Shown in pieces: positions 5,901 to 64,000 of a DNA stretch of 64,000 bases. The DNA lies in assembly GCA_001938485.1 (NCBI GenBank), contig MQRK01231351.1, positions 16,394 through 80,393 on the forward strand, in the 5' to 3' direction. The notes beneath the pieces were generated by a model. The model was not told where the DNA came from, ran no database searches, and saw nothing but the letters and a program-made list of their open reading frames with translations. A program made the translations under genes and the position numbers. This stretch comes from Girardia tigrina. Its lineage: Eukaryota. How positions within the stretch are numbered: position 1 is the stretch's first letter; each line of letters begins with the position of its first letter.

Positions 5901-6094
5901 TCACAAGTTTTTTATTGTCGTTTCATATGATGACATTTAAAAAGAAATACAAACTTTTTTTATAATAATGAGTTTTTTATTTGTTTTACTTTTCACTAAT
6001 AAAATTATCTAATACTTACATTAATAAAAAAGTACTCCTCTTTTATAAATTATTCTATTTTATAATTTTTAAAATATTTTTTATCGAAACTATT

Positions 6095-6830
6095 TATACA
6101 TTAATAAAATGAAATACAAAGTTCAAAGCTTCCTGCCCAATAAATAGCAAACAATTTGTGGATTACAAGCTAATCTGGTTTATAAATGTAATTGTCACAA
6201 GTGTAAAAATCGTCATCTGAAAACCCGGATTTGTGAGCGTTCACAATCAAGTCAATTTACTAAGGTTTTTGATCATTGGTTACATTGTAAAAATAGAATC
6301 TCTTCGATTTCAAAGGATCAGTTTTCTGTTTTACAGAAGGTCTTTGATTTACTTTATGATAGACAATTCTGGGAATTAATACGGCACTGCAACCAATTAA
6401 TTAATATTTAAAATAAGCAAATTAAGGCCCGTCTCAATTCTTAAAATCTTTAATTAAAACAAATAAAACATTTTGCGATTAGTATCAAATTAAATCCTGA
6501 AACATTATTTTTTTACTGATAAAATTTTCCATTAATTAACATTTTAATCTCACACATTACATTATAATTGCCGAAACATGAAAATTCTTTGAAACTGAAG
6601 AGATTCTCTTTTTACAATTTAACCAATGATCAAAAACCGTACTCGATTCCTTTGATTGTGAATGCTCATTAATCCAAGTTTCCAGATGACGATTTTTACA
6701 CTCGGGACAATTACATTTATAAACCAGATTAGCTTGTAATCCACAAATCGTTTGCTAATTATTGAACATGAAGCTTTGGACTTTGTATTTCATTTTATTA
6801 ACGTTAAAATGGTTTCAATAAAAATATTAT
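6095..6830. mobile_element. Penelope-like element fragment with inverted duplication of the GIY-YIG region
   Basis: 6100-6250 is an inverted repeat of 6650-6800; encodes ANLVYKCNC..C, typical of the PLE GIY-YIG endonuclease start. Confidence 0.6.
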
Positions 6831-16534: not shown

Positions 16535-17360
16535 ATCGGTGGGTGAGAGGTCCGGCGAGTAGAGTGGATGAGGCAGAGTTTCGTAGCCCAATTTGTTTAG
16601 CTTTCGTAGGGTCGGTTTTGCGATGTGTGACTGGACGTTGTCGTGGAGGAGAAGTGGCCCCTTCATATTGACCAATTTTGGGCACATACGTTGGAGCTCG
16701 AGATGTATTTTGTCAATTTGTTGGCAGTATTTCTCTGAGGTGATCGTTTCACCCATATTCAGACAGCTGTGATAGATGAGACCTGCTGCAGACCACCAAG
16801 CAGTCATTATAACCTTTTTTGGAGGAGTTTCGGTTTCGAAAAGTGATGAAGAGCCTCATCGCGATGTAACCATGTTGCCGAACGTCGCCAATTGTCATAG
16901 AGAATCCACTTCTCATCACACGTCACAATCCGATCGAGAAATGGGTCGTTCTCGTTGTGCAGAAGAAGCGCGGAAAACATCTCAAAACGACGATTTTTTT
17001 GACTTTCGTTCAATTCGTAAGGCACCAACTTATCGAGCTTTTTCGACTTTGCCATTAGCTTCAAGTACCGAGCGACGGTTAAGGGATCAACGCTAATCTC
17101 TTCTGCGAGTGCTCGAACAGTTGTGCGTGGATCGGCTTCCACCAACTTCTTCGATTCGTCGTTGTCAATCGTCGATGGGCGGGTGCCATGAGACTCATCT
17201 TTTAGACTGATTTGTCAGAACGAAACTTTTGATACCAGCGCTGAACCGCGCATTCGTCGACACTTTCCTTGCCCAAAACTTCGTTGATGTTTCTACGCCC
17301 TAGCTTGAACTCATAGAAGTAAATGTTGCGAAAATCACGTTTTGACATTTACCATAAATA
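16535..17360 (-). mobile_element. Truncated cecropia-subfamily mariner, same family as 30454-31689
   Basis: IVTCDEKW, LLHDNVQSH, PHPLYSPDLSPTD; highly similar to the 30.5-kb copy; no TIRs left. Confidence 0.9.
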
Positions 17361-26530: not shown

Positions 26531-27125
26531 TTGAGATATAAATATGTTTAATTATATAATTATTTCAAAGATAAAGATGAATTGTGGAAACAAAACGTTA
26601 ATATTTATTTGATAGATTAACTATGTAAATTTCAAATAATCAATTTAAATTTTATGTCAAGATATTTTTAACTTCATTTATTGAAAAATCCTCATTATTT
26701 ACCGGTACACTTTATATATGTGGTAAAAGAATATATTTTGACCAAATAAATAATTTTAACTACCAACAAATGTTTTTAAATAATTAAATGGAACAATGCA
26801 GAGAAGGTTTTAACGGGTCACGAAAATTTCACAAGTAGATCAAATGGGTAAATAAAATAATTTTATAAATTGTAAAGAAGGTTTTGAGAATTGTCGAATA
26901 ATTAGATACGATTACTTTAGGAGAATGATTTTCGTATATTTTATGCTGAGTTAATGGGTAACTTCATCTGTAATGTCTTTTGGATTCGTAAAATCGAAGA
27001 GGCACAAATTAAGGAAGAACTTGGATTTCATTTTGATGATTAATTCTACTGAAGAAATTAATTTGAAAATTTATCAAGTATTTTTTGATATAACCAAAGT
27101 CATCCATTTAAAAATATATTTTAAA

Positions 27126-27167
27126 ACAATATATTTCGACGGATCTACCGTCATCTTCAGGTCACTA
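27126..27167 (-). ncRNA. Minimal type I hammerhead ribozyme in the PLE pLTR
   Basis: GAC-CTGAAGA-T-GACGG TAGAT CCGTC-GAAA-TATATT-GTT. Confidence 0.8.
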
Positions 27168-28475
27168 ATTAATAATCAATTCACCTGTATATAAATACAA
27201 AAATGATGATTGTGTAATCGATTGCATGAAATCATGCTAATCAAAAATTCTCAATAAGCTGGTTGAGACTGCCGATTGAACATTGATTTTAGGGCAACGT
27301 GACCTAATTGACAATGCTTCACACGACAGTCTCTCCCAATAACTGTCAAAAGGCTTACACAGAATTTTGAAATTATCAAAATTTACATTTTTTCCTATGT
27401 TCTGCAATATTACTCTTACTCTCTTTTCGACCATGTTCTTGAATTCGTTTACAGAGATGACGGGCAGTCTCTCCAATGTTGCATCGCACCCATTACATTT
27501 ATATTCATAAACAATATCAGAACAAAGTGTTAAAGGTGTAATAGATTTATTACTGAACATATTTTGAATTTTATGAGATCGTGATATAATTTTTNNNNNN
27601 NNNNNNNNNNNNNNNNNNNNNNNNNNNNNNNNNNNNNNNNNNNNAGATTTATTACTGAACATATTTTGAATTTTATGAGATCGTGATATAATTTTTAAAT
27701 TTAATTCATTGTTAGTTGCTTTTAACAATGTATTTTTAAAGTTTTTAAATCCTTCAGAATAAGTTATAATTAAACAATATTTAGGCATATTATTCATATC
27801 TAATGATCCTTCGATTTCTTTCTTAGATCCATCAGGAGAAGCCAAACTCTGATTTTTCGAAAAATCTTTCAAAAGTATTTATCTACNNNNNNNNNNNNNN
27901 NNNNNNNNNNNNNNNNNNNNNNNNNNNNNNNNNNNNTTATCTACTGTTTCCTTTATTAATTTTTCTAGAAAGGATTTAGAATAACCATTCTTATTTAACA
28001 ACGAACTTAGTTTATTAACACTTTCTACAGATTTAACAAAAGTGGATGACAACGATCAGGAGCGATAAATTAAACCTTTAATCATGTTTCTTTTATACTT
28101 AAGTTCACAAAAACTATCTGGTGAAGTATATAAACCTGTATCAGTTTGCTTCCTATAAATTCCAGTCTCGTAACNAAGAGATTTTCTTTCAACCAAAAGA
28201 TCCAGAAAAGGTAAAACTCCATTCTTTTCATTTTCAACTGTAAAAGTAACATTTGAATGTAACGAATTCATAAAATTTAAAAATGGAAGTACATCAGCCT
28301 GATTTTTAAATTTTTTTTAGGAATATATCATCAACATATCGTTTATATACTAAAGGTTGATTTCCATCAAACAGTCTCAACCAGCTTATTGAGAATTTTT
28401 GATTAGCATGATTTCATGCAACCGATTACATAATCACCATTTTTGTATTTATAAACAGGTGAATTGAATATTAAT

Positions 28476-28520
28476 TAGTGACCTGAAGATGACGGTAGAT
28501 CCGTCGAAATATATTGTCTT
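28476..28520 (+). ncRNA. Minimal type I hammerhead ribozyme in the inverted pLTR
   Basis: GAC-CTGAAGA-T-GACGG TAGAT CCGTC-GAAA-TATATT-GTC; palindromic stem III AATATATT. Confidence 0.85.
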
Positions 28521-29141
28521 AAAATATATTTTTAAATGGATGACTTTGGTTATTAAAAGAAGATTTTCATCCGGACTTCATTTTTTGATATCTTCATTAT
28601 TTGAAATAAGAAATCTGGAAACAGAGATTCAGGAAAAGGATTTTTGTTTTCTATTTTGTGTTTCTGAGAATCCTGAAAATCGCCACAAAATACGAAAGAA
28701 AATTATCGAAATAACACAATAATAATATCATAATAATAATTTTATTAATAATAAAAAGTATTGTGAGAAGAAATTCACTTGGCGGTTTTTAAAGGTTTAG
28801 CAGCAACGAATGTCATTCTTCCAGTGTTGATCATTGGTCTTTTGTAAACAGTGTTTTATTCATAACTATATTTATCATTTAATAAAAAGGCAGTTCTAAT
28901 TCTTCCGAAATACATTAGATTTTCTCTATTTTGGACAAAAGTTCTTAATTTTCCAAGAGAACATATAATGCATTATTGTTTGGAATAATTAAATGGACTA
29001 AGCTTCCCTTCATGTTATTTTTTTTGACATGAAATATCAAACAAATTATATAAAACCAGTACTTATTCTAATAATTTGATTACCTTTTTAAAATTAAATG
29101 AAAAAAAAATAAGTATGTATTACTTATGATTGTTTTATGGT

Positions 29142-30453: not shown

Positions 30454-31689
30454 TTAGATTGTTGCAAAAGGTATGCAGGTTTTTGATTTTTTTGTATTTA
30501 CTGAAATGTTATACGACTAAAGCATGTATGATGTTATGATATTTGTCTAAAACTTATTATAATGTTTCTGTTAATAATTTCAATTTTAATTGCAGATGTC
30601 AAAACGTGATTTTTGCAACATTTACTTTTACGAGTTCAAGCTAGGGCGTAATGTAGCTCCAACCGATCGACACATCAACGAAGTTTGAGGCAAGGGAAGT
30701 GTCCACGAATATACGGTGCAGAGCTGGTATCAAAAGTTTCACTCTGGTAATACCAGCCTGGAAGATGAGTCTCATGGCACCCGCCAATCGACGATTGACA
30801 ACGATGAATCGAAGGAACTGGTGGAAGCCGATCCACGCACAACTGTTCGAGCAATCGCAAAAGAGATTAGCGTTGATCCCTTAACCGTCGCTCGGCACTT
30901 GAAGCAAATGGAAAAGTCGAAAAAGCTCGATAAGTGGGTGCCTCACGAATTGAACGAAAGTCAAAAAAATCGTTGTTTTGAGATGTTTTCCGGGCTTCTT
31001 CTGCACAACGAGAACGACCAATTTCTTGATCGGATTGTAACGTGTGATGAGAAGTGGATTTTCTATGACAATCGGCGACGTTCGGCAAAATGGTTACATT
31101 GCGATGAGGCTCTTCATCACTTTTCGAAACCGAAACTCCTCCAAAAAAGGTTATAATGACTGCTTGGTGGTCTGCAGCAGGTCTCATCTATCACAGCTGT
31201 CTGAATATGGGTGAAACGATGACCTCAGAGAAATACTGCCAACAAATTGACAAAATGCATCTCGAGCTCCGACGTATGTGCCCGAGATTGGTCAATATGA
31301 AGGGGCCAATTCTCCTCCAGGACAACGTCCGGTCACACATCGCAAAACCGACCCTACGAAAGCTAAACAAATTGGGCTACGAAACTCTGTCTCATCCACT
31401 CTACTCGCCGGACCTCTTGCCCACCGACTACCATTTTTTTAAGCATCTGGACAACTTCCTCAGAAACAATGCTTCAAAAACCAAGACGACACCAAAGACG
31501 CCTTTAACGCTTTCATGCATCCAGAACTCAGGAGTTCTACACTAGGGGTATCAATAAACTTGTTTCTTGTTGGCAAAAATGTATCGATTCTGATGATTTT
31601 TATTTCGATTAATAAAGTTCATTGTGTGCTGAGTTACATTTATTTAAAGTTTAGGTTCAAAAACCTGTATTGCTTTTGCATAAATCTAA
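30454..31689 (+). mobile_element. Near full-length cecropia-subfamily DD34D mariner with frameshifted transposase
   Basis: TA-flanked TIRs TTAGATTGTTGCAAAAG / CTTTTGCATAAATCTAA; MSKRDF..EFKLGR, WVPHEL, VTCDEKW, QDNVRSH, YSPDLLPTDYHFF. Confidence 0.95.
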
Positions 31690-46329: not shown

Positions 46330-47460
46330 AATAAATCTTTATATGATAATGGTTGTTCAAAATCAATAGTGGATAAACTAAGAAAATAAACTATTGATAA
46401 ATTAATTGACAAAAATAATAATACTAAAATTACAGATGTTCAAGATCAAGATCAATTTCGCAACACTAATAATAAGAGTTTAGAAATCAGATATGTTCTA
46501 AGTGTACCATATTCAGAGGGGTTTAAAATATTTAAAAATTATATTTTGAAAACGTTAGACAATGCTATAAGTTGAAAAGTAATATCCTGTACCCAAAAAT
46601 TGAAAGCATATTCTTCAATAAATCTTCAACACCGTTAGGATTGTGTTCATATCTCATTTACCAATATACATGTAATGGGTGTAACGCCACATACATTGGA
46701 AAAACTTCACGTCATCTCTGTAAGAGAATCCAAAAACAAAGTTATTTTTAGTGGCGTTTATACCATTGTCGTTATTAGAGATTTCACAATTCATATTTAA
46801 AACAAAAATTTATTTTTAAAATGTATTTTAATTATAAATAAAATTATTAAATTTAATTTATACTAAACTCTAATTTCTTTAAAAATAATGTCGTTGTAGA
46901 ATTTTATTATAAATTAACATTATAAATTTTACACCGTTTATTAATTATTTTAAAATTCTTATTTTAAAAACTTTTACTTATCATTTTCCTATATTAAATT
47001 TTTTCGACTTTACTTAATGCCAGCTTTTTAGATTTTAAACCCCTTTTTTATTTTATATAAATTATTTAATTTTTGTTAAAGTTTTAAATTAAAAAGATTA
47101 TAAATTATTTGACAAATTGAAAATTTTAAATAACTCCTCGTAGCCGTAATGAAGGTGGAAGTAACATTGTATGACATAGAAGACATTGTAAAGGATACAT
47201 AACTTGACAACACTATTAAATTTTGTACACGCAATTTAAAAAATATTGGGAGAGAGTGACACATGTCAAGCATTATATATAAGATCTTTGGATGCAAAAA
47301 TTAACTTTCAAACTGCACTCTCTACACATTTATTAGGAGTTTGTAAATAATGTGTTGGTGATATATAAATTACACAATCATTAATTCAACTATATAAGTG
47401 ACTTTCATTTTTAAAAAATTCATTTGTTCTGACGATGACGGTTAAGCTGTCAAAATTAAT
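46330..47460 (+). mobile_element. Decayed Penelope-like C-terminal fragment, split by an AT-rich insert, with a degenerate hammerhead at ~47429
   Basis: YQYTCNGCNATYIGKTSRHL GIY-YIG; ALYIRSLDAKINFQ; CTGACGA-T-GACGG..CTGTC-AAAA. Confidence 0.7.
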
Positions 47461-48794: not shown

Positions 48795-48847
48795 GTATAT
48801 ATATATCCATGGAATTTAGAAACCTATTTTTGAAGGCATTTTACTCA
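48735..48847 (+). repeat. Left part of a (TA)n-headed interspersed repeat (possibly Helitron/Helentron-like), split by the RLE retroelement
   Basis: TCCATGGAATTTAGAAACCTATTTTTGAAGGC..TTTACTCA matches 63478-63519. Confidence 0.75.
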
Positions 48848-51800
48848 TAAATATAGATAAAGTTTTTTGCCCGTTATGTATGTCAGACTTGCAATGGATT
48901 CTAGTAGTTTTTGATGTTAACAACAAAACAACCATCGTTTATAATGTAATGGAATCCCTAACACTGGAACAAGAACTGGCAATCAACAGCATTATTGCTA
49001 ATCTTCTCTCCTTCTTTCGATTAGGTGGCGAAGGTTGGATCTTGAAACAATCCAATGATTTGCCAACTTCACAAAAATTTGCAGAGAGTGGATACTGGAT
49101 TGCCAACTCTATATGNNNNNNNNNNNNNNNNNNNNNNNNNNNNNNNNNNNNNNNNNNNNNNNNNNNNNNNNNNNNNNNNNNNNNNNNNNGTTCAAAAGAA
49201 AATTAGACGACAAGAAAAAACTATTAAAGAAAAGAATAACAGAGAATTGCGTTACAAAAAAATTTCAGAGATAATAGTGGCCAACTCCACAAAAAGTGCT
49301 GAAGAATTGGACTCTGTCATTACCAACTACATTTTGCAAGCAAGAGTTAAAACGGTCAAAAATCTCAATGCATCAAGAAATATCAGGAATATTAGAAAAA
49401 AAACGGATGTAAATCTACGACATTACTTTAAAATAAAACCGAAAAAGGCCATGGAAATAATTTTAAGTGACACTACTGTTGATGGAGGGCTATGTTTGGA
49501 ATGTCTTACAAATTACGCCAAATCAAAAGCGACTATCCTCCTGAAACAGACTGGAGCAATGCACCAAACATCAAACCTGGCCCAAAATTTCAATTTCAGC
49601 ATGTCACTCCAGAAGAGATTGTCAACATACTCAAGAACACCAAAAATACTACTCCCGGTATATCAAACATTGGCTATGCAGATATTGACTATTGCGACCC
49701 GGGTTGTCGATTTCTGCCCACATTATTTAATAAAATCATTGATACAGGAGTTATTCCACCAAGTTGGAAGAAATTCCTAACGGTAATAATCCCTAAACCA
49801 GGTAAGTCAGGAAATTACAAAGAAGGATCATGGAGACCAATAGCACTGATGGAATGCATTGCCAAGTTGTTCACATCTTGCCTATGTACTCAACTGGAAC
49901 AATGGCTAGTGAAGAACAATTTAATTTCAAAGTTCCAAAAAGGCATCGGACCATCGGTCGGGTGCGCTGAACACAATAACGTCATGAGAATTTTACTGGA
50001 GGAATATGAACATCTTCATATTGCATTCCTCGATCTAACTTATGCATTTGGCAGCATTCCAATTAATCATATATTAGAAGTTCTCAGAAGAAAAGGTCTA
50101 GATTCATTCTCCTGCTCTCTCATTGCAAATCTGTACTCGGATTGTTCATCAACATATGCCTGCAATGATTGTACGACTGAAGACATATCCATCAGGAGGG
50201 GGGTTAGACAAGGATGTCCTCTTTCAATGCTGCTGTTCAGTGTTGGAATTGATCCAATTTTGGCTGCACTACAAGATAATTATGCTTTTGGTATCGACAC
50301 CGAGGCTGGTATGATCACTTGTCTGGCATATGCAGATGATATTGCATTAGTTGCAACCAGCAACTCTTGTTTACAAGCCATGGTTTCATGGTTGAATGGA
50401 CTTCGATGAAGTTTAACCCAGCCAAATGTGGATATTTATCAACTCCTCTTATGAACGAATCAATCCATATTAATAACATACCAATACCTATAGTAACGGA
50501 TGAAGAAGGTTACCGTTATCTCGGAGTAGACTTTACCAGAAAGACAAAATTCACTCCTGAACGTCTATTTCTATCAGCTATTAAGGACTTGAAAAAAATA
50601 ACCAAATCAATACTATTTCCCTGGCAGAAAATAGAAGNNTATAGAATCTTTATACACTCACGATTCACCTTCTATTTTCAAAACTATAATATACCAAACA
50701 GGGAACTTACGGATTATGGCCACCACGAAACCACGAAGTCTATCTTTAAAAGCGGCCTTGACGTGGAAATTCGTCGTTACCTGAAGAAGATTTGTGGAAC
50801 GGTCCCAAATTCATCCAATGATTACACTTATGCTGACAAGAAAAAAGGTGGTTTAGGTTTAGTCTCTACCCGAGATGAATACGCAATACAATCTATAATT
50901 CAAGCGTACAAGAACATGGTGTGCTCAGACGAAACATCGCGTCATCTCACCTTTATCAATTTATTCAACACCCTAGACAGATATCACGGTACTAAAGAAG
51001 AATGGACACTCTCTGATTACCTAAACTGGATCAACACAGGTGACAAAGAGAATGGATTTAAATCTTGGTGGACGAAGATTCGGAATTCAATCAAATACCT
51101 GAAAGGCATTGGGTTACAAATTCAGTTTGTCACTAACGAGCTAGGTATTTGTTTAAAAGTTCACATATCCAATGATTCGCTGATACTAAGTAAACACTCA
51201 ATAGACAGTATAACTTTCCACTTGCACAGAATCTATAACAAAATGAAATTTGACAAATGGAGCAAACAAAGGATGGCTGGAATGTCAGCCATCTCATTGN
51301 CAGAACACAACTTCAGCTCCAAAGTATTATACAATGAGTCACTATCCATCGAGGAATGGCGCTTTTTACACAGCGCAAGGACAAATAGTTTACCAACAAA
51401 TTATAAGCCGAAAAAACCAAAACAACAATCGATGTGTAGGGCATGTGGTCAAGATATAGAAACACAGATCCATGTTCTATGTTGATGTAAACCCAACAGC
51501 ACTCTGATACAGGCGAGACATAATGAAATCGCAGAAATCGTCACAGATGCTTTACTTGCAGAGAAACCAATTTTAAAAATCATCATGAATCGAGAGTGTG
51601 ATTGGTCTGTGTCGGGAAGCCGGATTGATTTACCAGTTTATAACCATGGAACCAAAGAACTCTGGCTTATAGATATAAAAACCCCTTATGACACTGTCAA
51701 AGCACTTAAAGATGCCAAAGATAACAACAAAAAGAAATATAAAAGCCTGCTAACTGAAGCAAAGGCGGCTCATAAAGGATGGACTGTAATATTAGGAGCA

Positions 51801-52141
51801 ATTGTTGTCGGCTGTTTAGGATCTTGGCCCGCCGATAATGACAACCTGCTTAAAAACAAAATTACATCTTTCAGGTACAACTATAAAAAATTTAACCAAA
51901 ATGTGCATAGTGTCGAATATCAAATATTCCAACTCTACATGGCATAAACACAATACCGGTCAATATAACCCACTGATGTCAAATGCGGTGACGACAAATC
52001 TTACCGACACAGTCAAACCATATGCACCAGTAGCCGGTTGATAACAATAGCACAAGTCAAAGATGCTCTATACAGCGACCATAGCTTTGAGCATCTAATG
52101 TATATGGATATCTTTACATATTTCAACTTGAAATTTTGTCA
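48848..52141 (+). mobile_element. 5'-truncated RLE-type non-LTR retrotransposon (NeSL/Utopia-like, R2 group): Ulp1-like, RT, CCHC and restriction-like endonuclease; frameshifted
   Basis: WRPIAL, FLDLTYAFGSIP, GVRQGCPLS, AYADDIAL, FNPAKC; KKGGLGL; CRACGQDIETQIHVLC*C; ARHNEI, RIDL..IDIK..KKKY; N-terminal FCPLC..QWILVVFD..IVYN. Confidence 0.9.
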
Positions 52142-52550
52142 CAATTTTTTCCAAACTTTGAACACTTACTCATTCTCGATGACAATAAATGATTATGTGG
52201 AAATTTGAAAAACCTTTATAGGTCTCAAAATTGGAACAAAACGGTCCTATCGGAGTTCCTGAACAATATTACCATAAAAAGATCTACTTATAAATTATAA
52301 GTAGTTTATATTACACAAAAAAATTAAATTGTAAAATGAATAAAGTCCAGTAATCCGATTTAAAGTCGAACTAGTAAATCGAAAAAATATTTTTTATATC
52401 CATGCTTTATGCGGGCAGAACTCTACTTGACTAACATAATGTGTTTTATTGATTTTTTTTGAAAATATTTTTTTATTAAAACTTTGTTGGCCAAGCAGAT
52501 TTCTGTCTGCATAAATAATGAATATAAGATTTTTTTAGATTTACTAGTTT
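52142..52550 (+). repeat. Right part of the same interspersed repeat, ending in a ~70-bp-arm inverted repeat
   Basis: Matches 63522-63820 and 62755-62990; 52370-52436 inverted at 52485-52550. Confidence 0.75.
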
Positions 52551-53891: not shown

Positions 53892-55670
53892 GGTATCACG
53901 TCAAAACGCCGCAAACAAAAACGCCGCGGGTAAAACGCCGCGGACAAAAACGCCGCGTGACAAAAACGCCGCATGACAAAAACGCCGCCGTTTCGACGCT
54001 GGGACATTTCAACGCCAGAAATTAGGAATTTGAGGAATAAAATGAAATAATTTGTTATTAATTAGGAATTTTAGGAATAAAATGATTAATTTGTTATTAA
54101 TTAGGAATTTTAGGAATAAAATGAAATAATTTGTTATTAATTAGGAATTTTAGGAATAAAATGAAATAATTTATTTTTAATTAGGAATTTTAGGAATAAA
54201 ATGAAATAATTTNNNNNNNNNNNNNNNNNNNNNNNNNNNNNNNNNNNNNNNNNNNNTTAATTAGGAATTTTAGGAATAAAATGAAATAATTTATTTTTAA
54301 TTAGGAATTTTAGGAATAAAATGAAATAATTTATTTTTAATTAGGAATTTTAGGAATAAAATGAAATAATTTATTTTTAATCAGGAATTTTAGGAATAAA
54401 ATGAAATAATTTATTTTTAATTAGGAATTTTAGGAATAAANNNNNNNNNNNNNNNNNNNNNNNNNNNNNNNNNNNNNNNNNNNNNNNNNNNNNNNNNNNN
54501 NNNNNNNNNNNNNNNNNNNNNNNNNNNNNNNNNNNNNNNNNNNNNNNNNNNNNNNNNNNNNNNNNNNNNNNNNNNNNNNNNNNNNNNNNNNNNNNNNNNN
54601 NNNNNNNNNNNNNNNNNNNNNNNNNNNNNNNNNNNNNNNNNNNNNNNNNNNNNNNNNNNNNNNNNNNNNNNNNNNNNNNNNNNNNNNNNNNNNNNNNNNN
54701 NNNNNNNNNNNNNNNNNNNNNNNNNNNNNNNNNNNNNNNNNNNNNNNNNNNNNNNNNNNNNNNNNNNNNNNNNNNNNNNNNNNNNNNNNNNNNNNNNNNN
54801 NNNNNNNNNNNNNNNNNNNNNNNNNNNNNNNNNNNNNNNNNNNNNNNNNNNNNNNNNNNNNNNNNNNNNNNNNNNNNNNNNNNNNNNNNNNNNNNNNNNN
54901 NNNNNNNNNNNNNNNNNNNNNNNNNNNNNNNNNNNNNNNNNNNNNNNNNNNNNNNNNNNNNNNNNNNNNNNNNNNNNNNNNNNNNNNNNNNNNNNNNNNN
55001 NNNNNNNNNNNNNNNNNNNNNNNNNNNNNNNNNNNNNNNNNNNNNNNNNNNNNNNNNNNNNNNNNNNNNNNNNNNNNNNNNNNNNNNNNNNNNNNNNNNN
55101 NNNNNNNNNNNNNNNNNNNNNNNNNNNNNNNNNNNNNNNNNNNNNNNNNNNNNNNNNNNNNNNNNNNNNNNNNNNNNNNNNNNNNNNNNNNNNNNNNNNN
55201 NNNNNNNNNNNNNNNNNNNNNNNNNNNNNCCAATTAATAACAAATTATTTCATTTATTCCTAAAATTCCTAATTCATTTCAAATTATTTCATTTTATTCC
55301 TAAAATTCCTAATTAATAACAAATTATTTCATTTTATTCCTAAAATTCGTAATTAATAACAAATTATTTCATTTTATTCCTCAAATTCCTAATTTCTGGC
55401 GTTGAAATGTCCCAGTGTCGAAACGGCGGCGTCTTTGTCCGCGGCGTTTTTGTCTGCGGCGTTTTACGCGCGGCGTTTTTGTTCGCAGCGTTTTTGTACG
55501 CGGCGTTTTTGTTCGCGGCGTTTTTTCACACGTCGTTTTTGTTCGCGGCGTTTTTGTCTGCGGCGTTTTTGTCCGCGACGTTTTTGTTCGCGGCGTTTTT
55601 GTCACGCGGCGTTTTTGTTCGCGGAGTTTAGTCCGCGGCGTTTTTGTTCGCGGCGTTTTGTCGTGGAACC
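53892..55670. mobile_element. Mutator/foldback-type element with modular long TIRs (15-bp AAAACGCCGC repeats plus 40-bp satellite)
   Basis: GGTATCACG...CGTGGAACC termini, mirror-image arms, perfect 9-bp TSD ATTTTTATA; centre is a gap. Confidence 0.9.
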
Positions 55671-55699
55671 ATTTTTATAACTTCAATGAGCACCTCATA

Positions 55700-56440: not shown

Positions 56441-56527
56441 TTTGAGATCGACCAAGAGACAGCCGCTGCAGCTGTTACAATTCAAGCAACCATTAGAGGA
56501 CACTTAACTAGAAAACATTTAAAAGAG
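56441..56527 (+). CDS. Internal exon encoding an IQ calmodulin-binding motif
   Basis: ttttag|FEIDQETAAAAVTIQATIRGHLTRKHLKE|gttagt; 87 nt, phase 0-0; IQxxxRGxxxRK. Confidence 0.85.
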
Positions 56528-57599
56528 GTTAGTGATATTATTTTAAGAAATTTTTTATTGTAAAGCGTTATAAAATTTATTTATTTCAATCTTCAAGTAA
56601 CAAAATTTTTTGTTTTATGATAAAAGAAACTCAAAGTAACTCTGAGTATCTCTGTCATCTAGAATTTAGGACTCACTTGCTCTTTTATGTCTGTTTCAAC
56701 CACAAAGATTTCATCACGCACTTGTGAAGGAACTGATTCCTCAAATCTCTTCTCATCTTTATTTTTTATATTTTATTAAAATAAAAACTTATTTATTTCT
56801 TTTAATTGAAAGAAGAGAAATTAAATTTCTTTTCGTTTGACTTCATGGGGAAATCTTTCAACATTTTTTTTATTTTAATGTAAAATTACTTTTTTGTTTC
56901 AATTTCTTTTCTTTCATTTGAATTAAACATCTTAATGAAGAAAAATTAAAAATATATCACTTTAATTTCTTGGAGCTTCGTCTATGTCACTTAAGATTTC
57001 CATTAAAATAATTTAGTCATAGTGATTTTTGATAATTTTAATGGTACTCATATATTATTTACTACTCATATTTTCACTTATTAGAATGACCACCCGAACA
57101 TGTTCATTTGGTTTTATGCTTATAGTTTACCAAAATATTTATAGTTCGAAAATTTAAGTTGCAACTTAAACCGTTCTCGGGTTATTTTTTTGAAAATCTT
57201 TGAATGAACTCAACTGAGTCTTAAAAAGAAGGGTGATTAATTGTATTTTTAATTGTATTTGTAAGGCAGTACCAGTGGTCCTAGTGCTTCACAAAATAAC
57301 TTAGATGAAGAATATACAAAATCTTCGAACACGATCACGATGCATGACATGTCAGTGCCCCTCGATAGTACCGCTGAGACGGACTCAGGAGTGATTTCAA
57401 GGGTGGTCCTCGACTTTCGGTTAAGTAATACAAATGATGTGGGGATATTTCGGTGTCCCTTTACAACTTGTTCACAGAAAGACTCGTTCAACACTACTTT
57501 GTGGAATATGATTAGGAAAAATAGACCAAAATAATCAATGATCTTAGTTCATTTTTTATTTTATCTTCTGTTATTTCGTGAGTAATGTAAATATTATAA

Positions 57600-57917
57600 A
57601 GAAGGTGGCTTGGACCATCAGAAAGGAGCTCTGTCCTGACACAGTTTGCATCAAATGAATTAGTTAATTCTACGAATGAGATTTATCAGCAACAATCGGC
57701 GATTTTGGAGCTGCTGTTGACGGAGCAAAATTTTTTGAAGCAAATTCAGTTTATTGTTCAGGTTTACGTACTGAGCTTTGAAATTTTAAAGTTGGAGTTC
57801 TTTCCAAACATTTCTTCTGAAGAAATATTCCTCAACCTAAAATCATATTTCATATGCAATTCCACTTATATTTCCAATGACGATTGTCGCGATTTCAAAG
57901 AATTTTTCAATTATTAG
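57600..57917 (+). pseudogene. Possible RhoGEF DH-domain N-terminal fragment, truncated by a mariner
   Basis: QQSAILELLLTEQNFLKQIQFIVQVY..EEIFLNL resembles DH helix 1 (ELLxTExxY..IFxNL). Confidence 0.4.
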
Positions 57918-58800
57918 GGTGAACCAAAAGTCTTTTCGTATTTTTTATTAAAAATTTAAACATAATTTTACAACAAATGAAAAACATTTAAGTTTCAAAG
58001 TAAAGGCCATTTGAATCTATAGCTTGAATCCAACTATGGCAGTGGTGGCCAAACTGGGTGACGCGACACCCTAGGGTGATTTTTAAAAAGATTTTTACGC
58101 GTAAGTAATTGTTTTATCATACTACTAACGCCTTGTTACAATTCACCAAATGTAACAATTCACCAAAAATTTAATGCAAAGGCATATGGGTGTCGCGAAA
58201 TTTTTCCGTTTACAAAAAGGTGTGGCGGCGCAAAAAAGGTTGGCCACCACTGATCTATGGGCAAGTTGTACGATCCCGCTGCGGTACCAATCCTTGTTCT
58301 TAGAAGCGAAGAACTGGTGACTTTCGTTTTTGACCTCGGCCAGATTATTGAAGCTGCGACCACGAAGAAAGTGTGCCATAGATCGGAAAAGGTGATAGTC
58401 GGATGGCGCAAGATCCGGACTATATGCTGGGTGTGGAAGAAGTTCAAAGGCGTCGAGATTTTTGATTTTTTCTTTTGTTTGTTTGGTGGTGTGCGGTTTT
58501 GCATTGTCCTGTTGTAGAAGAACTCGCTTTCAACTGATCAAAGTGGGGTATTTCTTGCCAAGTGCGCATACATTCGATCAAGTTGGGCGCAGTTAAGGTC
58601 AGCGTCGATGGTACGACCATTTGGAACCAGCTTGAAGTGAATCGCGCCTCCGAAATTCCACCAAACACACAAAAGTGCCTTCCTTGAGAAACGATCTCGT
58701 TTCGCTACTGGTTTCGCCATTTGACCGGGGTCCAACCATTGATTTTGTTGGTCTGGATTACTGAAGTAAACCTACTTTTCATCGCTAGTAACAATGTGAC
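57914..58800 (-). mobile_element. 5'-truncated mariner interrupted by a hAT MITE
   Basis: IVTSDEK, LLCVWWNFGG, DNAKPH, YSPDLAPSDYHLF; 3' TIR TTAGGGTGAACC after TA. Confidence 0.85.
58040..58252. mobile_element. hAT (Charlie-like) MITE
   Basis: TIR CAGTGGTGGCCAA / TTGGCCACCACTG; 8-bp TSD AACTATGG/ATCTATGG. Confidence 0.85.
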
Positions 58801-59019
58801 TGCATAATGGATCGTATGTAATCCAAAATAATTTTTCATAATTTTATTATCCTAACTTCTTAGCTTACCATATATGGACCAAACTGTTTTTTGGATATTC
58901 TACATGAAAAAATAAAAAAATATATAATATAGGAAAAGAGAAATAAAGATTATTATTATTAAAATAAAAAAAATCATGCAGTAAAGGGTTAAAATACAAT
59001 GTAATAAATTATTTGATGG

Positions 59020-59700
59020 TGTAAGTAAAATAATTGAGAAAAGGATGATTTTAAATCCGATATAGGAACGAATGAGAGGCATAATTGTGGTTACACATTA
59101 ACTGTTCTTTATTCTGAAGGTCTTAAAAAATTCAAATCTTTTATTATAATATCAATTAAGACTATGAATACTATGAATTTAAAAATCGTATCAAAAACAT
59201 ATAAAATCCAGAATAAGTTCAGTAATAAATCGAAAACTCCTTTGAGTTTATGCTCGGATCTTGCGCATAAATTTGATTGTAATGGGTGCAACGCCACATA
59301 AATTGAAGAGACAGTCATTCATCTCTGTAAACGGGTTCGTGAGCATAGACATTACTAAGTGGTAGTAGTAATATTGCTGAACATAAAAAAACATTGTAAA
59401 TCTTCTGTTAAAATAAATAATTTTAAAGTTTTATGCAACAATTTTTTAAATTATTGGGAAAGATTCTCATGTGAGGCATTAATAATAAAAGTGGTTAATC
59501 CAGCAATTAATTTCCAATCAAGTCACTTATCAACTTTGTTGAAAGTGTTTACGTGAAACAATAATTACATAATTGATTATGTAACCATCATTTTAACATA
59601 TATAAGGTTAGCAGCTTGAATTAGAATCGCCTGATGATAACGGATATTCCGTCGAAATGTATTACAATAATAAAAAAATTATTTTAAAATGGCGTCTTTT
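59020..59700 (+). mobile_element. Penelope-like 3' fragment (GIY-YIG + pLTR) with a hammerhead-like motif at 59626-59668
   Basis: KFDCNGCNAT, RVREH, EALIIKVVNPAINFQ; CTGATGA-T-AACGGA TAT TCCGTC-GAAA. Confidence 0.8.
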
Positions 59701-60093
59701 AATTTTTAATTCTGTAAAATTATTGTAATTTAAAAATATAATAAATTCAATTCGTAAAAATAACCATTTCAATAAATAACATATCAGTATTTAAAATTAA
59801 GTATTTTTACGTATAATCAATCTGGTCAAAAAGAAAAAAGAAAAAATCCTCAGCAATAACAGTTTGAATAATTGTTAATTGTAATAGAAATCAAGTTTTG
59901 CGTTCTTGTGAATTCAATTATTGATTACTAAATATAATCCTAAAATTAAAATCCTTTTAATCGAAGAAAGTCTAGCAAAAGGTTGTTTGGATTGAGCTTA
60001 GTTGTATTTAAATATTTGATCTTTATCAGTTCATCTTCTTTTTTAATATTTCTTTTTTGCTCACTGATCATTAATCAATTTTAGGACTTTTAA

Positions 60094-60325
60094 CCCTACA
60101 ATACGCAATTTTTTTAATTATCAGTATTAATACGGCCAGTATTACAAACTGAACTGTCATTTTTGTTGACAAAATATATTGCATCTATGACTTTATGGGT
60201 AGTTATCATTCCATAGACAATGTTTTTGGTTCACAGTATGTAAACACTCAAAGAATATCACGTGATTAAAAGATATTGAGGTAAAATATGGTTGATTCAA
60301 ATATGAATCACGGCGCATTGTAGGG
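60094..60325. mobile_element. TTAA-target (piggyBac-type) MITE
   Basis: TTAA-CCCTACAATACGC...GCGCATTGTAGGG-TTAA. Confidence 0.8.
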
Positions 60326-60518
60326 TTAATAATATTTGTCTCATTTTTTCACATGTTATAAAAAAGTAATTTTCAGAATAAAATTTTATTAAAATATTAT
60401 CTTAAATTAACGACTATAAACTTTTAATGTAAGTTATATTTTAATTTTTATTTTTCTGTTATTAACTTGTATTATTTGCCAATTATCATTAAAGTTATGT
60501 TAAATATTTCCATTGCAG

Positions 60519-60540
60519 AATCGTGCTCTTGAAGCTCAAA
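60519..60540 (+). CDS. 22-nt microexon of the IQ-motif gene (NRALEAQ+A)
   Basis: ttgcag|...|gtaag; phase 0-1 bridges the IQ exon and the 61354 exon in frame. Confidence 0.65.
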
Positions 60541-61353
60541 GTAAGAATTCATTTCACTTGAAATTTTCAATTATTTATATTTCATATATTTTATATATTG
60601 AAATTTTTATTTTAAAAAATTTTTAACTGTATTTATGAAGATTATTTATTTCATTTTTCTTGAGAAATTTAAAAAATAATTTTTAAAAATGTTACTAGAA
60701 AATTTTTTGTAAATTTCTGAAAGAATTTAATCTTTATATGTGTATATTTTTAATTTTTTTAAAATAATTTTTTATATATTTTTATTAATAACTTACAGAG
60801 CAAATATTGAGGCTTTTGTGTATTATGTCAAGAAATCTTTTCTTTAACATTACGAAGAAGTATATTTGACTTGTTTTTTCTATTTTTTCAAAGTATACAA
60901 CAGTGAGTTTCTTAATTTAATATATCAGATTCAACCAAATCGATCTCATCGGGGGCCCCTCATATAGTATCCGTGGTACCAATACGTTTTACAAAACTTA
61001 TAAATGAGCAAAGAGATTTCAATTCCTCGAAATTCATAACAAGTCATAAAAAATATCAACATGTAAATTCATTCGTAAAAATATTGTAAGTCCACAATTA
61101 CAAGCGAAAATAGCACCCCATGATTTCGTAAATGGAACCCGTACAAAGTCCGAATTAGTTTTTAATCGGCAAACACTGTTTCGGTGACCATAATCAAGAT
61201 TTCTTCAAAAATACCATTTCGATTATTAAAGCAAACGTTTTACTTTATAATTTTTACTGTATGTATATGGATTGTGAAAACAAGAATTTGTTTCAGAAGT
61301 CTTTTATCAAATAATTATTTATAATTTAAATAAATCCAATGATTAAATTACAG

Positions 61354-61602
61354 AAAAAATGGAAATGGAAATGAAAATCAAAATGAATGATATGAATGAA
61401 GATAAAAAGGAACAAGAGTCTTATGTTAATGAAGACGAAGTAAACATCATGACAGACAATGAAAATAATGAAGAAACATCGGAAAGAGTAATAGAAAGCC
61501 GTAAAGGTACTCCACTAGAGGAAAATGAAGAGGATGTAGATGAACCTTTGGATATTGAAGATGTGATTAACCCTGAAGTAGCATTCGTTGAAGGGCATAA
61601 AG
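61354..61602 (+). CDS. Acidic (E/D-rich) exon of the IQ-motif gene
   Basis: tacag|KKMEMEMKIKMNDMNEDKKEQ...VEGHK|gtttgt; phase 1 entry matches the microexon. Confidence 0.75.
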
Positions 61603-62079
61603 GTTTGTTAAATGTAAAACTAAAATAGTTTAACAAGTAATAACAACGCTCGGCTTATGTATCATGCATTAACTCATTTTTTGGTTTTGTGGTGAATATT
61701 TTAGAACATAACTTGCTTGGTGTTTATTTGTCAATATTTCTATAGTTTAATTTAAAAACCTTAAGTCGGATGCAAATATTCCGAGAGAAAATAATTGTTG
61801 TTGTCCTCAAAAATTCTCCATAGTGAATTCATAGTGATAACATCCAGTTATACCATAACCATCAATGAATCGTTTGTCTACCTCCCAATTATCATAAGCC
61901 ACGCTTTATTATGATTATTTTTAACTGTCATACCGATAATTCAATTTTTATGTGTAACTTTTATCCAGAATTTGATTTAATTAATCAGTCTTTCATTTCC
62001 TGTAATAAATGAGTATGTTTTGTTTAAAGCACGACAATGTTATTGTTATGCATGTTGTTACATGTATCACAATGCGACC

Positions 62080-62480
62080 ACATAATAGATTTCTACCGTC
62101 CCAAACTAGTATGTAAGTATACAGTACCAGTCAATGTCAGCGGATTTTTGTCGCATGGAGAAAATCAACAAATCGATTTCCATAACATTACCTGCGACGC
62201 ATCCAACCGGAGCACTAATCATTTATCGGGTTTTCAGGTTTAGTCGGTACTGGAAGATCGTCTCACATGGCACTCACGCCGACGAATTTCCATCAAACTA
62301 CCGACACCTAAACCACTCGCATAGTGAGTTTCACCCGATGATTGTTTAGTAGCGGTCTAAACATGGAATCAACATTTGTTCGGCAAATCTCATGTTGATG
62401 ATTTCAGTTGACACATTTTTACTGGTACAGAAATATACTTATTACTGATTTGGGACCCCAGAAAACAATCTATTTATGTC
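62080..62480 (+). ncRNA. Candidate ~400-nt intronic multibranched structured RNA
   Basis: Basal GTCCCAAA/TTTGGGAC, TAAGTATA/TATACTTA, GTACCAGT/ACTGGTAC; branches ATCGGGT/ACCCGAT, GGTTTAG/CTAAACC, TCGGTA/TACCGA, GTCGCA/TGCGAC, TGTTTAG/CTAAACA, ATCAACAT/ATGTTGAT. Confidence 0.7.
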
Positions 62481-62615
62481 ATACCACTAATACCAACAAT
62501 CCTGAAACAACCTTATGTTGATCATTCTAAACAATAAATTTTCCAGATTATTTTTGTGTTTATTAATTTATTTAGTTAATGGAAGATAGAGATCCACTCG
62601 CTCACATTTTCCATT

Positions 62616-62659
<44 letters not shown>

Positions 62660-62709
62660 NNNNNNNNNNNNNNNNNNNNNNNNNNNNNNNNNNNNNNNNN
62701 NNNNNNNNN

Positions 62710-62992
62710 TATATATATATATATATATTGAAGTCTTTTTATTCCATCGAACTTGGAACACTTACTCATTCTCGATGACAATAAATGATTATGTAAAAAT
62801 TTGATCGAAAAAAACTTTTTAAGATCCCCAAATTGGAAAAAACGGAAAATTCGGAGTTCCTGAACAATATTAATTGCAAGTTATCTACTTATAAATTATA
62901 AGTAGTTTACATTAATTTTTAATGTTTTTTAATTAAAATTTTTTAAATTTTAAAAACTTTGTCGGCAAAGTAGAGTTCTGTCTGCAACTAAT
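62710..62992 (+). repeat. Shorter copy of the (TA)n-headed interspersed repeat
   Basis: CTTACTCATTCTCGATGACAATAAATGATTATG core; ends GTAGAGTTCTGTCTGC-AACTAA (hairpin + CTRR-like). Confidence 0.7.
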
Positions 62993-63467
62993 GTTTCTCA
63001 TTTAAAATTCATTTGGAGAGATATAATCGGTATAATGGTGGAAAATGTCACTGACATCGAAGCTGAGAGACGAGGTTATGGCGAAATCGAAAACTGACTG
63101 TGTAGTGAAAGCTGATCATGTGTAGAAATTTAAGTACTATCGATTATATGATAACTCGTATATTGGAGAGACAGTTGTCATTTATAAACGAAGAATACTG
63201 AGCATTAGCAGTCAAGTTGATCGTGTAAGATTGTAGATAAGATTGTTCTTTAATGATGTTTTCTATTTAAAACATTATTTTATTTATAGAGATTATGACA
63301 AATTTCTTTACATGTAAATTTAAGTATAAGATATAATACGTATTATCATACATGTAAGATGCATCCCGGCTTTAAAACAAACATTTTTTGCATTTTTAAG
63401 CTCATAATTTTTATAAAATAAAATAAAATTTTATTGTATTTTTTCTATTATTTTTATTAGCTTTCTT

Positions 63468-63870
63468 TCTATATGTATCCATGGAATTTAGAAACCTATT
63501 TTTGAAGGCTTTTTACTCAATCAATTTTTTTCAAACTTTTCACATTTACTCATTCTCGATGACAATAAATGACTATGTAAAAATTTGATCAAAAAATTTT
63601 TATAGTCTCAAAATTGGAACAAAACAGTCCCATCTGAGTGCCTGAACAATATTAGCATAAAAAAATCTACTGATAAATTATAAGTAGTTTATATTACGCA
63701 AAAAAAATAAATTGAAAAATAAATAAATCCAGTAAACCGATTTTAAGTCCAACTAGTAAATCGAAAAAAATATTTTTATATCCATACTTTATGCGGGAAG
63801 TACTCTGCTTGGCGAACAGATTTTTTAAATTTTTTATTGTGTTTTTTTTCGAAAATATTTTTTTTAATTT
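63468..63870 (+). repeat. Uninterrupted copy of the repeat: empty site for the RLE retroelement
   Basis: Joins the 48807-48847 and 52142+ sequences contiguously (TTTACTCAATCAATTTTTT). Confidence 0.8.
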
Positions 63871-64000
63871 CTATAAATAAAACAAAAAAGCAATTAAAAA
63901 GAGTATAAAATTGAAAATAAATATTTCCCTTGAAACGATTCGAACGCTCAACTATCACCTTCACATGAGAAAAAAATATTCGTGAAAACACTGACACATG

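Follow-up and report, generated by a model that had tools for sequence, protein, structure and literature searches.

According to PMC3601003, the LTRs of animal Metaviridae (Ty3/gypsy) have conserved TG...CA ends, an AATAAA and a GT-rich stretch, and long R regions are associated with stem-loops. The R regions of retroviruses range from 15 to 250 nt according to PMC12789967, where the long structured R of HTLV/BLV is hypothesised to join the poly(A) signal and the poly(A) site. The repeat described here, found in a 64,000-nt stretch of Girardia tigrina DNA (the window), shares with the solo LTRs of Metaviridae its apparent TG...CA ends, an AATAAA and a GT-rich stretch near the 3' end, a length under 1 kb and its many copies. 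It differs from them, as PMC3601003 describes them, in that its ends fit the pattern TGTTRNR...YNYAACA only partly, no parent element was found for it, and a 400-nt branched fold fills half of its length. With the long R and Rex response element of HTLV/BLV it has in common a large stem-loop in a putative LTR beside 3'-end signals, a comparison of how the two might work and of nothing else. In HTLV/BLV, as treated in PMC12789967, the AAUAAA lies upstream of the fold, in U3, and R is about 250 nt, whereas the best AATAAA of the repeat lies downstream of its fold and we know of no Rex-like protein or sequence likeness for it. The locus is a high-copy mobile repeat, ordinary in kind, whose folded core is unusually large.

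The fold at 62080-62480 makes up the central ~400 bases of the ~780-base repeat. On the + strand its energy is -132.8 kcal/mol with z -10.67, and none of 100 shuffles was as good; on the - strand the values are -133.1 kcal/mol and z -7.22. Among the 195 N-free 300-nt tiles of the window, scanned with 6 shuffles per tile, the fold ranks first with z -9.0, the next tile reaching -6.0. An earlier note made from the sequence of this stretch had judged the fold hard to explain by chance and proposed a fold z-score as a check; the z of -10.67 and the top rank among the tiles bear this out. The parts of the fold are as follows.

62080-62141, + strand: basal stem, 5' arm (fold and helix list)
62407-62479, + strand: basal stem, 3' arm (fold and helix list)
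62098-62105/62449-62456, + strand: perfect 8-bp helix 1 (helix p 0.98-1.0)
62114-62121/62434-62441, + strand: perfect 8-bp helix 2 (helix p 0.98-1.0)
62124-62131/62421-62428, + strand: perfect 8-bp helix 3 (helix p 0.98-1.0)
62142-62204, strand unassigned: left branch (segment z -2.8/-2.5)
62206-62356, + strand: long multi-helix arm with side hairpin (segment z -6.2)
62357-62406, + strand: right branch, the TTCG-capped arm, poorly defined (segment z -1.2)

The basal stem contains 55 pairs, summed from the helix list, in line with the ~50 bp first proposed, and all three perfect 8-bp helices seen in it by eye are recovered. It closes a 265-nt branched region without a short loop. Within that region the five helices attributed to the long arm are all present with p 0.92-0.99, as is the ACTCGC/GTGAGT side hairpin at 62315-62329 with p 0.97. 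Four branches had been claimed in all, and here the long arm and side hairpin stand while the other two are weak on the + strand: the left branch has pair p 0.34-0.44 on + and 0.83-0.99 on -, and the TTCG-capped arm, with pair p 0.04-0.22, does not hold up as a defined element. The fold neither decides the strand of the RNA nor favours +: it has 10 G-U pairs on + against 13 on -, and under DNA parameters it scores z -7.1 on + and -8.3 on -. Rfam searches at E<=10 returned 9 matches in 58000-64000 and 4 in 61800-62620, all far under the gathering score, and no miRNA family matches. The earlier note recognised no known miRNA in either arm. ARAGORN found no tRNA gene. Two short open reading frames over the fold have no Pfam match, and in relatives they carry frame-breaking indels in copies of the repeat.

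The window holds one copy of the repeat. Of 24 public sequencing runs listed, 20 share part of the stretch and none has half its words; the word share exceeds 0.2 in runs X1, X2 and X3 and is small in the other 17 of the 20 holders, including X10 and X19, and small shares are no evidence on habitat. Contigs of four runs from four studies were aligned to 61300-62610 (1,311 nt): X1, guessed to be a DNA library, X19, confirmed as RNA, and X3 and X10, guessed to be RNA. The alignments define the following feature.

61835-62618, + strand: high-copy interspersed repeat, 784 bp, with TG...CA ends, likely a solo LTR (depth, contig counts and left loose ends; right end deduced)

X1 gave 2,915 contigs at 80-100% identity, 488 of them at 99% or more, 885 at 95-99%, 1,029 at 90-95% and 513 below 90%. 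Its summed contig depth, which is not copy number, is 96 on the neighbouring exon compared to 149,000-1,010,000 in all 17 bins of 61872-62610. The contig count and this rise in depth by three to four orders of magnitude show very many differing copies in the relatives; the multicopy evidence comes from them and not from the window's own genome. The X1 contig at depth 96, which extends over the exon and the start of the intron to 61854, 20 nt into the repeat, shows the left flank to be single-copy; with 9 other letters in 555 it marks the X1 run as a close relative. The repeat is present in all four aligned runs, with X3, X10 and X19 giving the same span as X1, and several copies on the relatives' contigs have internal deletions. 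Its sharing by organisms A, B and C does not amount to deep conservation, since no more than ~2-3% separates their host exon from that of the window. Contigs carry neither strand nor level, and the presence of the repeat on those of X19, X3 and X10 could, at such a copy number, come from carried-over DNA and is not counted as evidence of expression; nor is the lack of cover at 61608-61783 in these three runs counted as evidence. The single-locus structured RNA or Drosha/Dicer substrate implied by the earlier note finds no support in these data, as the stretch belongs to a very high-copy repeat.

The ends, flanks and motifs of the repeat are these.

61835-61849, + strand: left terminus, beginning TGATAAC (three loose ends of X3 and X19)
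61831-61834, + strand: left flank ATAG, possible 4-bp target duplication (3 of 4 match the right flank)
62004-62009, + strand: second AATAAA (most aligned relatives differ at two of its positions)
62533-62561, + strand: AATAAA at 62533-62538 with a GT-rich tract at 62551-62561, likely a poly(A) signal and downstream element
62577-62616, + strand: terminal hairpin, 2 nt short of the end (z -4.4 on +, -1.7 on -)
62619-62729, no strand: right flank ATAT, leading into a (TA)n tract that contains an assembly gap (sequence)

We viewed 24 of 286 loose ends of relatives and compared the three that cross 61835. From 61835 onward they agree with the window at 11/15, 11/15 and 14/15 positions, and to the left at only 5/10, 1/6 and 0/6; one of the three reads TA instead of TG at the terminus. 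Judged from all three, the repeat begins at TG 61835. The alignment of one X10 contig begins eight bases before this, at 61827, probably by chance extension. The fixed left end at TG, with unrelated flanks in all three loose ends, speaks against a 5'-truncated LINE tail. The right end probably lies at CA 62617-62618, read from the CA before the TA tract in this copy alone; the aligned stretch stopped at 62610, and the depth of relatives is still high up to there. The flanks ATAG and ATAT, the latter beside the TA tract, are identical at 3/4 positions. The AATAAA at 62533 and the GT-rich tract stand ~80 nt before the CA end, and such a pair occurred within the last 150 nt in 0.14% of 5000 shuffles, in a test devised after the motif had been seen; three further AATAAA lie on the - strand. 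The ends are weakly complementary (TG, then 3/7 ungapped) and contain no terminal inverted repeat of at least 10 bp, with 7/30 end positions complementary.

MITEs are short, non-coding elements that occur in very many copies and fold back. The repeat is likewise short, non-coding, of very high copy and folded back, but its paired arms lie well inside it, set back 245 and 139 nt from the ends, and we rejected the MITE assignment because the ends are not inverted repeats (7/30). The earlier note had named a multicopy MITE with TIR and TSD as the finding that would overturn it; the contigs of relatives show the multicopy part, and the TIR is absent.

Several other mobile elements lie in the window. 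At 48806-52400 there is a broken non-LTR retrotransposon (RT E 1.8e-23), which starts where a (TA)n/(TATG)n tract ends and has a weak Ulp1-protease match under the cut-off (E 0.0044); its RT has only distant relatives, the best named being R2DM-type. We take this element to be NeSL/R2-like. Short derivatives of it stand at 63476-63810 and 62738-62945, one being its 5' start fused directly to its 3' tail and the other a 3' fragment that starts just past the TA tract beside the repeat. Fragments at 27090-28553, 46536-46751 and 59038-59301, presumably Penelope-like, have a GIY-YIG-like motif (E 0.055, under the cut-off) and 182-nt inverted arms at 97%. A foldback-like element at 53968-55680 spans an assembly gap and consists of inverted arrays of a 40-nt unit and a GC-rich 15-nt tandem unit. 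Mariner-like transposase remnants and one 241-nt inverted-arm element are found at 16536-17209, 30754-31427, 6078-6824 and 58143-58771, and the remnants include an inverted pair at 95%, 13.5 kb apart.

The repeat is inserted in a gene with an IQ motif, of which three exons were recognised.

56441-56529 (5' border approximate), + strand: IQ-motif exon (Pfam IQ E 1.1e-07, above the cut-off; last 8 nt match the X10 spliced contig)
60519-60540, + strand: 22-nt exon (X10 loose end; AG/GT flanks)
61354-61602, + strand: acidic coding exon (X3 and X10 contigs diverge from the window after it)

A contig of X10 links the exon end at 56529 to 60519-60540 and then to 61354-61602, and after 61602 the X3 and X10 contigs continue into an exon absent from the window. 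Because the contigs splice across 56529, 60519-60540, 61354-61602 and the out-of-window exon, the repeat is placed in an intron on the + strand of this gene, and that intron opens at GT 61603. Protein searches returned no relatives of the host gene. Between its exons lie a RhoGEF-like start at 57600-57763 (Pfam E 0.0047, under the cut-off) and another open piece at 57265-57431; both are skipped by the X10 spliced contig and are possibly alternative exons, and a RhoGEF-like assignment of the gene was dropped because that contig skips the piece. From the splice sites and spliced contigs, passive + strand transcription of the repeat within the host intron is likely. Beyond the donor (61603) the exon frame continues and meets a stop 9 codons later, at 61627-61629. 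This stop and the AATAAA at 62004 would be ingredients of an intronic poly(A) isoform, to judge from the motifs.

We give about even credence to the reading that the repeat is a retrotransposon's solo LTR, with a fold that likely served the element's own RNA. The apparent TG...CA ends, the AATAAA with its GT-rich tract and the possible target duplication (3/4) fit this reading. By eye, neither flank looks like a PBS or PPT, and this, together with the single-copy left flank, is what a solo LTR should show. It counts against the reading that neither a two-LTR element nor a gag-pol, PBS or PPT was found for the repeat. In the history that we infer, which includes the right end, the LTR identity, the strand, the R-region position and every functional step, an integrase would have placed the element, giving the TG...CA ends and the ~4-bp duplication, and LTR-LTR recombination would later have left a single LTR. 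In active copies, the RNA would begin at the stem or upstream of it and end ~20 nt past the AATAAA at 62533, so that the fold would be located in a very long R region, at both ends of the RNA. The basal stem would bring sequences before 62080 beside the poly(A) region, and the arm might be a protein-binding, export or packaging signal; the fold could then serve the element RNA in 3'-end formation, export or packaging. The copy in the window would be a present-day passenger in host pre-mRNA. Against this model stand an R near 500 nt, about twice the longest retroviral R in the range of 15-250 nt given in PMC12789967, a poly(A) signal downstream of the fold where that of HTLV is upstream, a fold that does not favour +, a right end read from this copy alone, the commonness of AATAAA in this composition, with three more on the - strand, and the imperfect duplication (3/4) and weakly complementary ends.

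Motif scans of sequence collections returned chance matches, as judged from the sequences. The metagenome scan gave 17 loci with GC 0.51-0.68, 0 of them with blastn similarity to the repeat, and the viral scans gave 2, 12 and 0 loci, 5/14 matching over the motif alone and none beyond it. A genome scan with the terminal hairpin motif found two bacterial loci (L032:183-222 and L033:2439-2480) with the same AT-rich inverted motif in non-homologous DNA and only the palindrome in common; they are likely operator-type palindromes alike by chance. A literature search found no description of such an element, and the family may already stand in Repbase or Dfam. The account of planarian giant LTR elements in PMC6431247 yielded no link to the repeat.

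We viewed 40 of 217 variant places among relatives, 18 of them inside the fold. On the + strand the variant creates a pair at 2 of these 18, preserves one at 4 and breaks one at 5; the other 7 lie at unpaired positions, and no two-sided compensatory change is found among the 18. Of the five breaks, two fall in pairs with p below 0.5, one can shift register and two fall in pairs with p of at least 0.99. Well-paired positions hold 5/18 of the fold variants compared to 190/401 expected, a difference that is not significant (P 0.075). The trunk is interrupted by 9 asymmetric loops, 6 one-by-one mismatches and one 3x3 loop, counted from the helix list, between near-perfect helices; in this it resembles a selected fold more than a neutrally decayed palindrome, and the comparison leans towards selection in the ancestral element. 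The window copy may itself be drifting, as suggested by 2 viewed + strand places at which relatives pair and the window copy is open.

Two other kinds of mobile element were weighed against the solo LTR. It is unlikely that the repeat is a TIR-less, non-autonomous element of the DNA or rolling-circle kind, such as one akin to Helitron2/Helentron. Such an element would be read on the - strand, with a 5' T and the hairpin at 62616-62577 within 2 nt of the end, like the 5' hairpin of non-autonomous Helitron2 in PMC3627910, and the central fold would be an ssDNA structure or a frozen internal inverted duplication. The fold is indeed as stable with DNA parameters and has no G-U strand bias, and several copies have internal deletions; however, the terminal hairpin as RNA is more stable on + than on -, and no 3' asymmetric TIR like that of Helitron2 was found in the repeat. 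In Helitron2/Helentron such a partner stands 20-30 nt from the other end, ahead of a hairpin; here the best partners of the hairpin arm were 7/11 and 8/15 and ~100 nt in, and the copy is diverged near that end, which makes the test weaker. The 5'-TC/CTRR-3' ends of Helitron1 are absent on either strand, both possible starts being TG and the ends ATTACA and TTATCA. Quite unlikely is a SINE-like or retrozyme-like element, that is, a structured non-coding RNA copied back by another element's reverse transcriptase, with the fold as the replicating RNA. A fixed 5' end, a large closed fold, very many copies, presence in the RNA library X19 and the two guessed ones (X3, X10), non-LTR RT elements nearby and a right end that abuts a simple repeat would suit it, but the presence in RNA libraries may be DNA carry-over, and no tRNA-, 5S- or 7SL-derived feature (Pol III head, homology to a source RNA) was detected by Rfam at gathering score, ARAGORN or a B-box search. 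Neither strand contains an exact CUGANGA, the hammerhead core motif, and only cores with one mismatch occur. The repeat is like retrozymes, as presented in PMC9695139 and PMC5680766, in being non-coding, highly structured, multicopy and of a similar size range, and unlike them in having no hammerhead ribozyme and no paired LTRs, the window containing no tandem or paired copy.

Two further readings concern the host. Whatever the origin of the repeat, it is improbable that this copy now serves the host gene as a co-opted alternative 3' end. In that case the AATAAA at 62004 or 62533 would end a short isoform, and the stem in its 3' UTR would be a candidate ADAR or dsRNA-protein substrate. The stop at 61627-61629 and the sense-strand poly(A) signals are in the sequence, and the single-copy X1 contig that reaches 61854 makes it likely that a relative ~98% alike shares the insertion; against this, the exon-bearing X3 and X10 contigs splice out at the donor, and the places where relatives pair and the window copy is open suggest drift. 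The original interpretation, a single-locus pri-miRNA or hairpin-RNA gene under selection, is highly improbable. It would account for the long bulged basal stem, with its high pair probabilities, in an intron on the + strand, but the sequence is a multicopy repeat without an Rfam miRNA family match, and a basal stem that closes a 265-nt branched region departs in geometry from a ~35-bp stem with a short apical loop. Given the likely passive transcription within the host intron, ADAR or Dicer might act on the stem.

The best-folding stretch of the window belongs to a mobile repeat; taking such a stretch for a host RNA gene is the usual trap of fold-based scans. The remaining interest lies in how large and well formed the fold is within a probable LTR. 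The repeat stays unclassified unless covariation or a parent element is found. The many natural copies make the structure directly testable by covariation. If the copies covary, the fold would be a large cis-acting RNA element in a retrotransposon of an invertebrate and would supply dsRNA for editing and silencing across the genome. It is doubtful, and we offer it only tentatively, that the repeat is either an LTR with a 400-nt Rex-response-element-like domain in an R of ~500 nt, selected over thousands of copies, or a ribozyme-free structured RNA retroposed at very high copy. If either is true, thousands of ready-made long dsRNA stems would have been seeded into host introns and UTRs.
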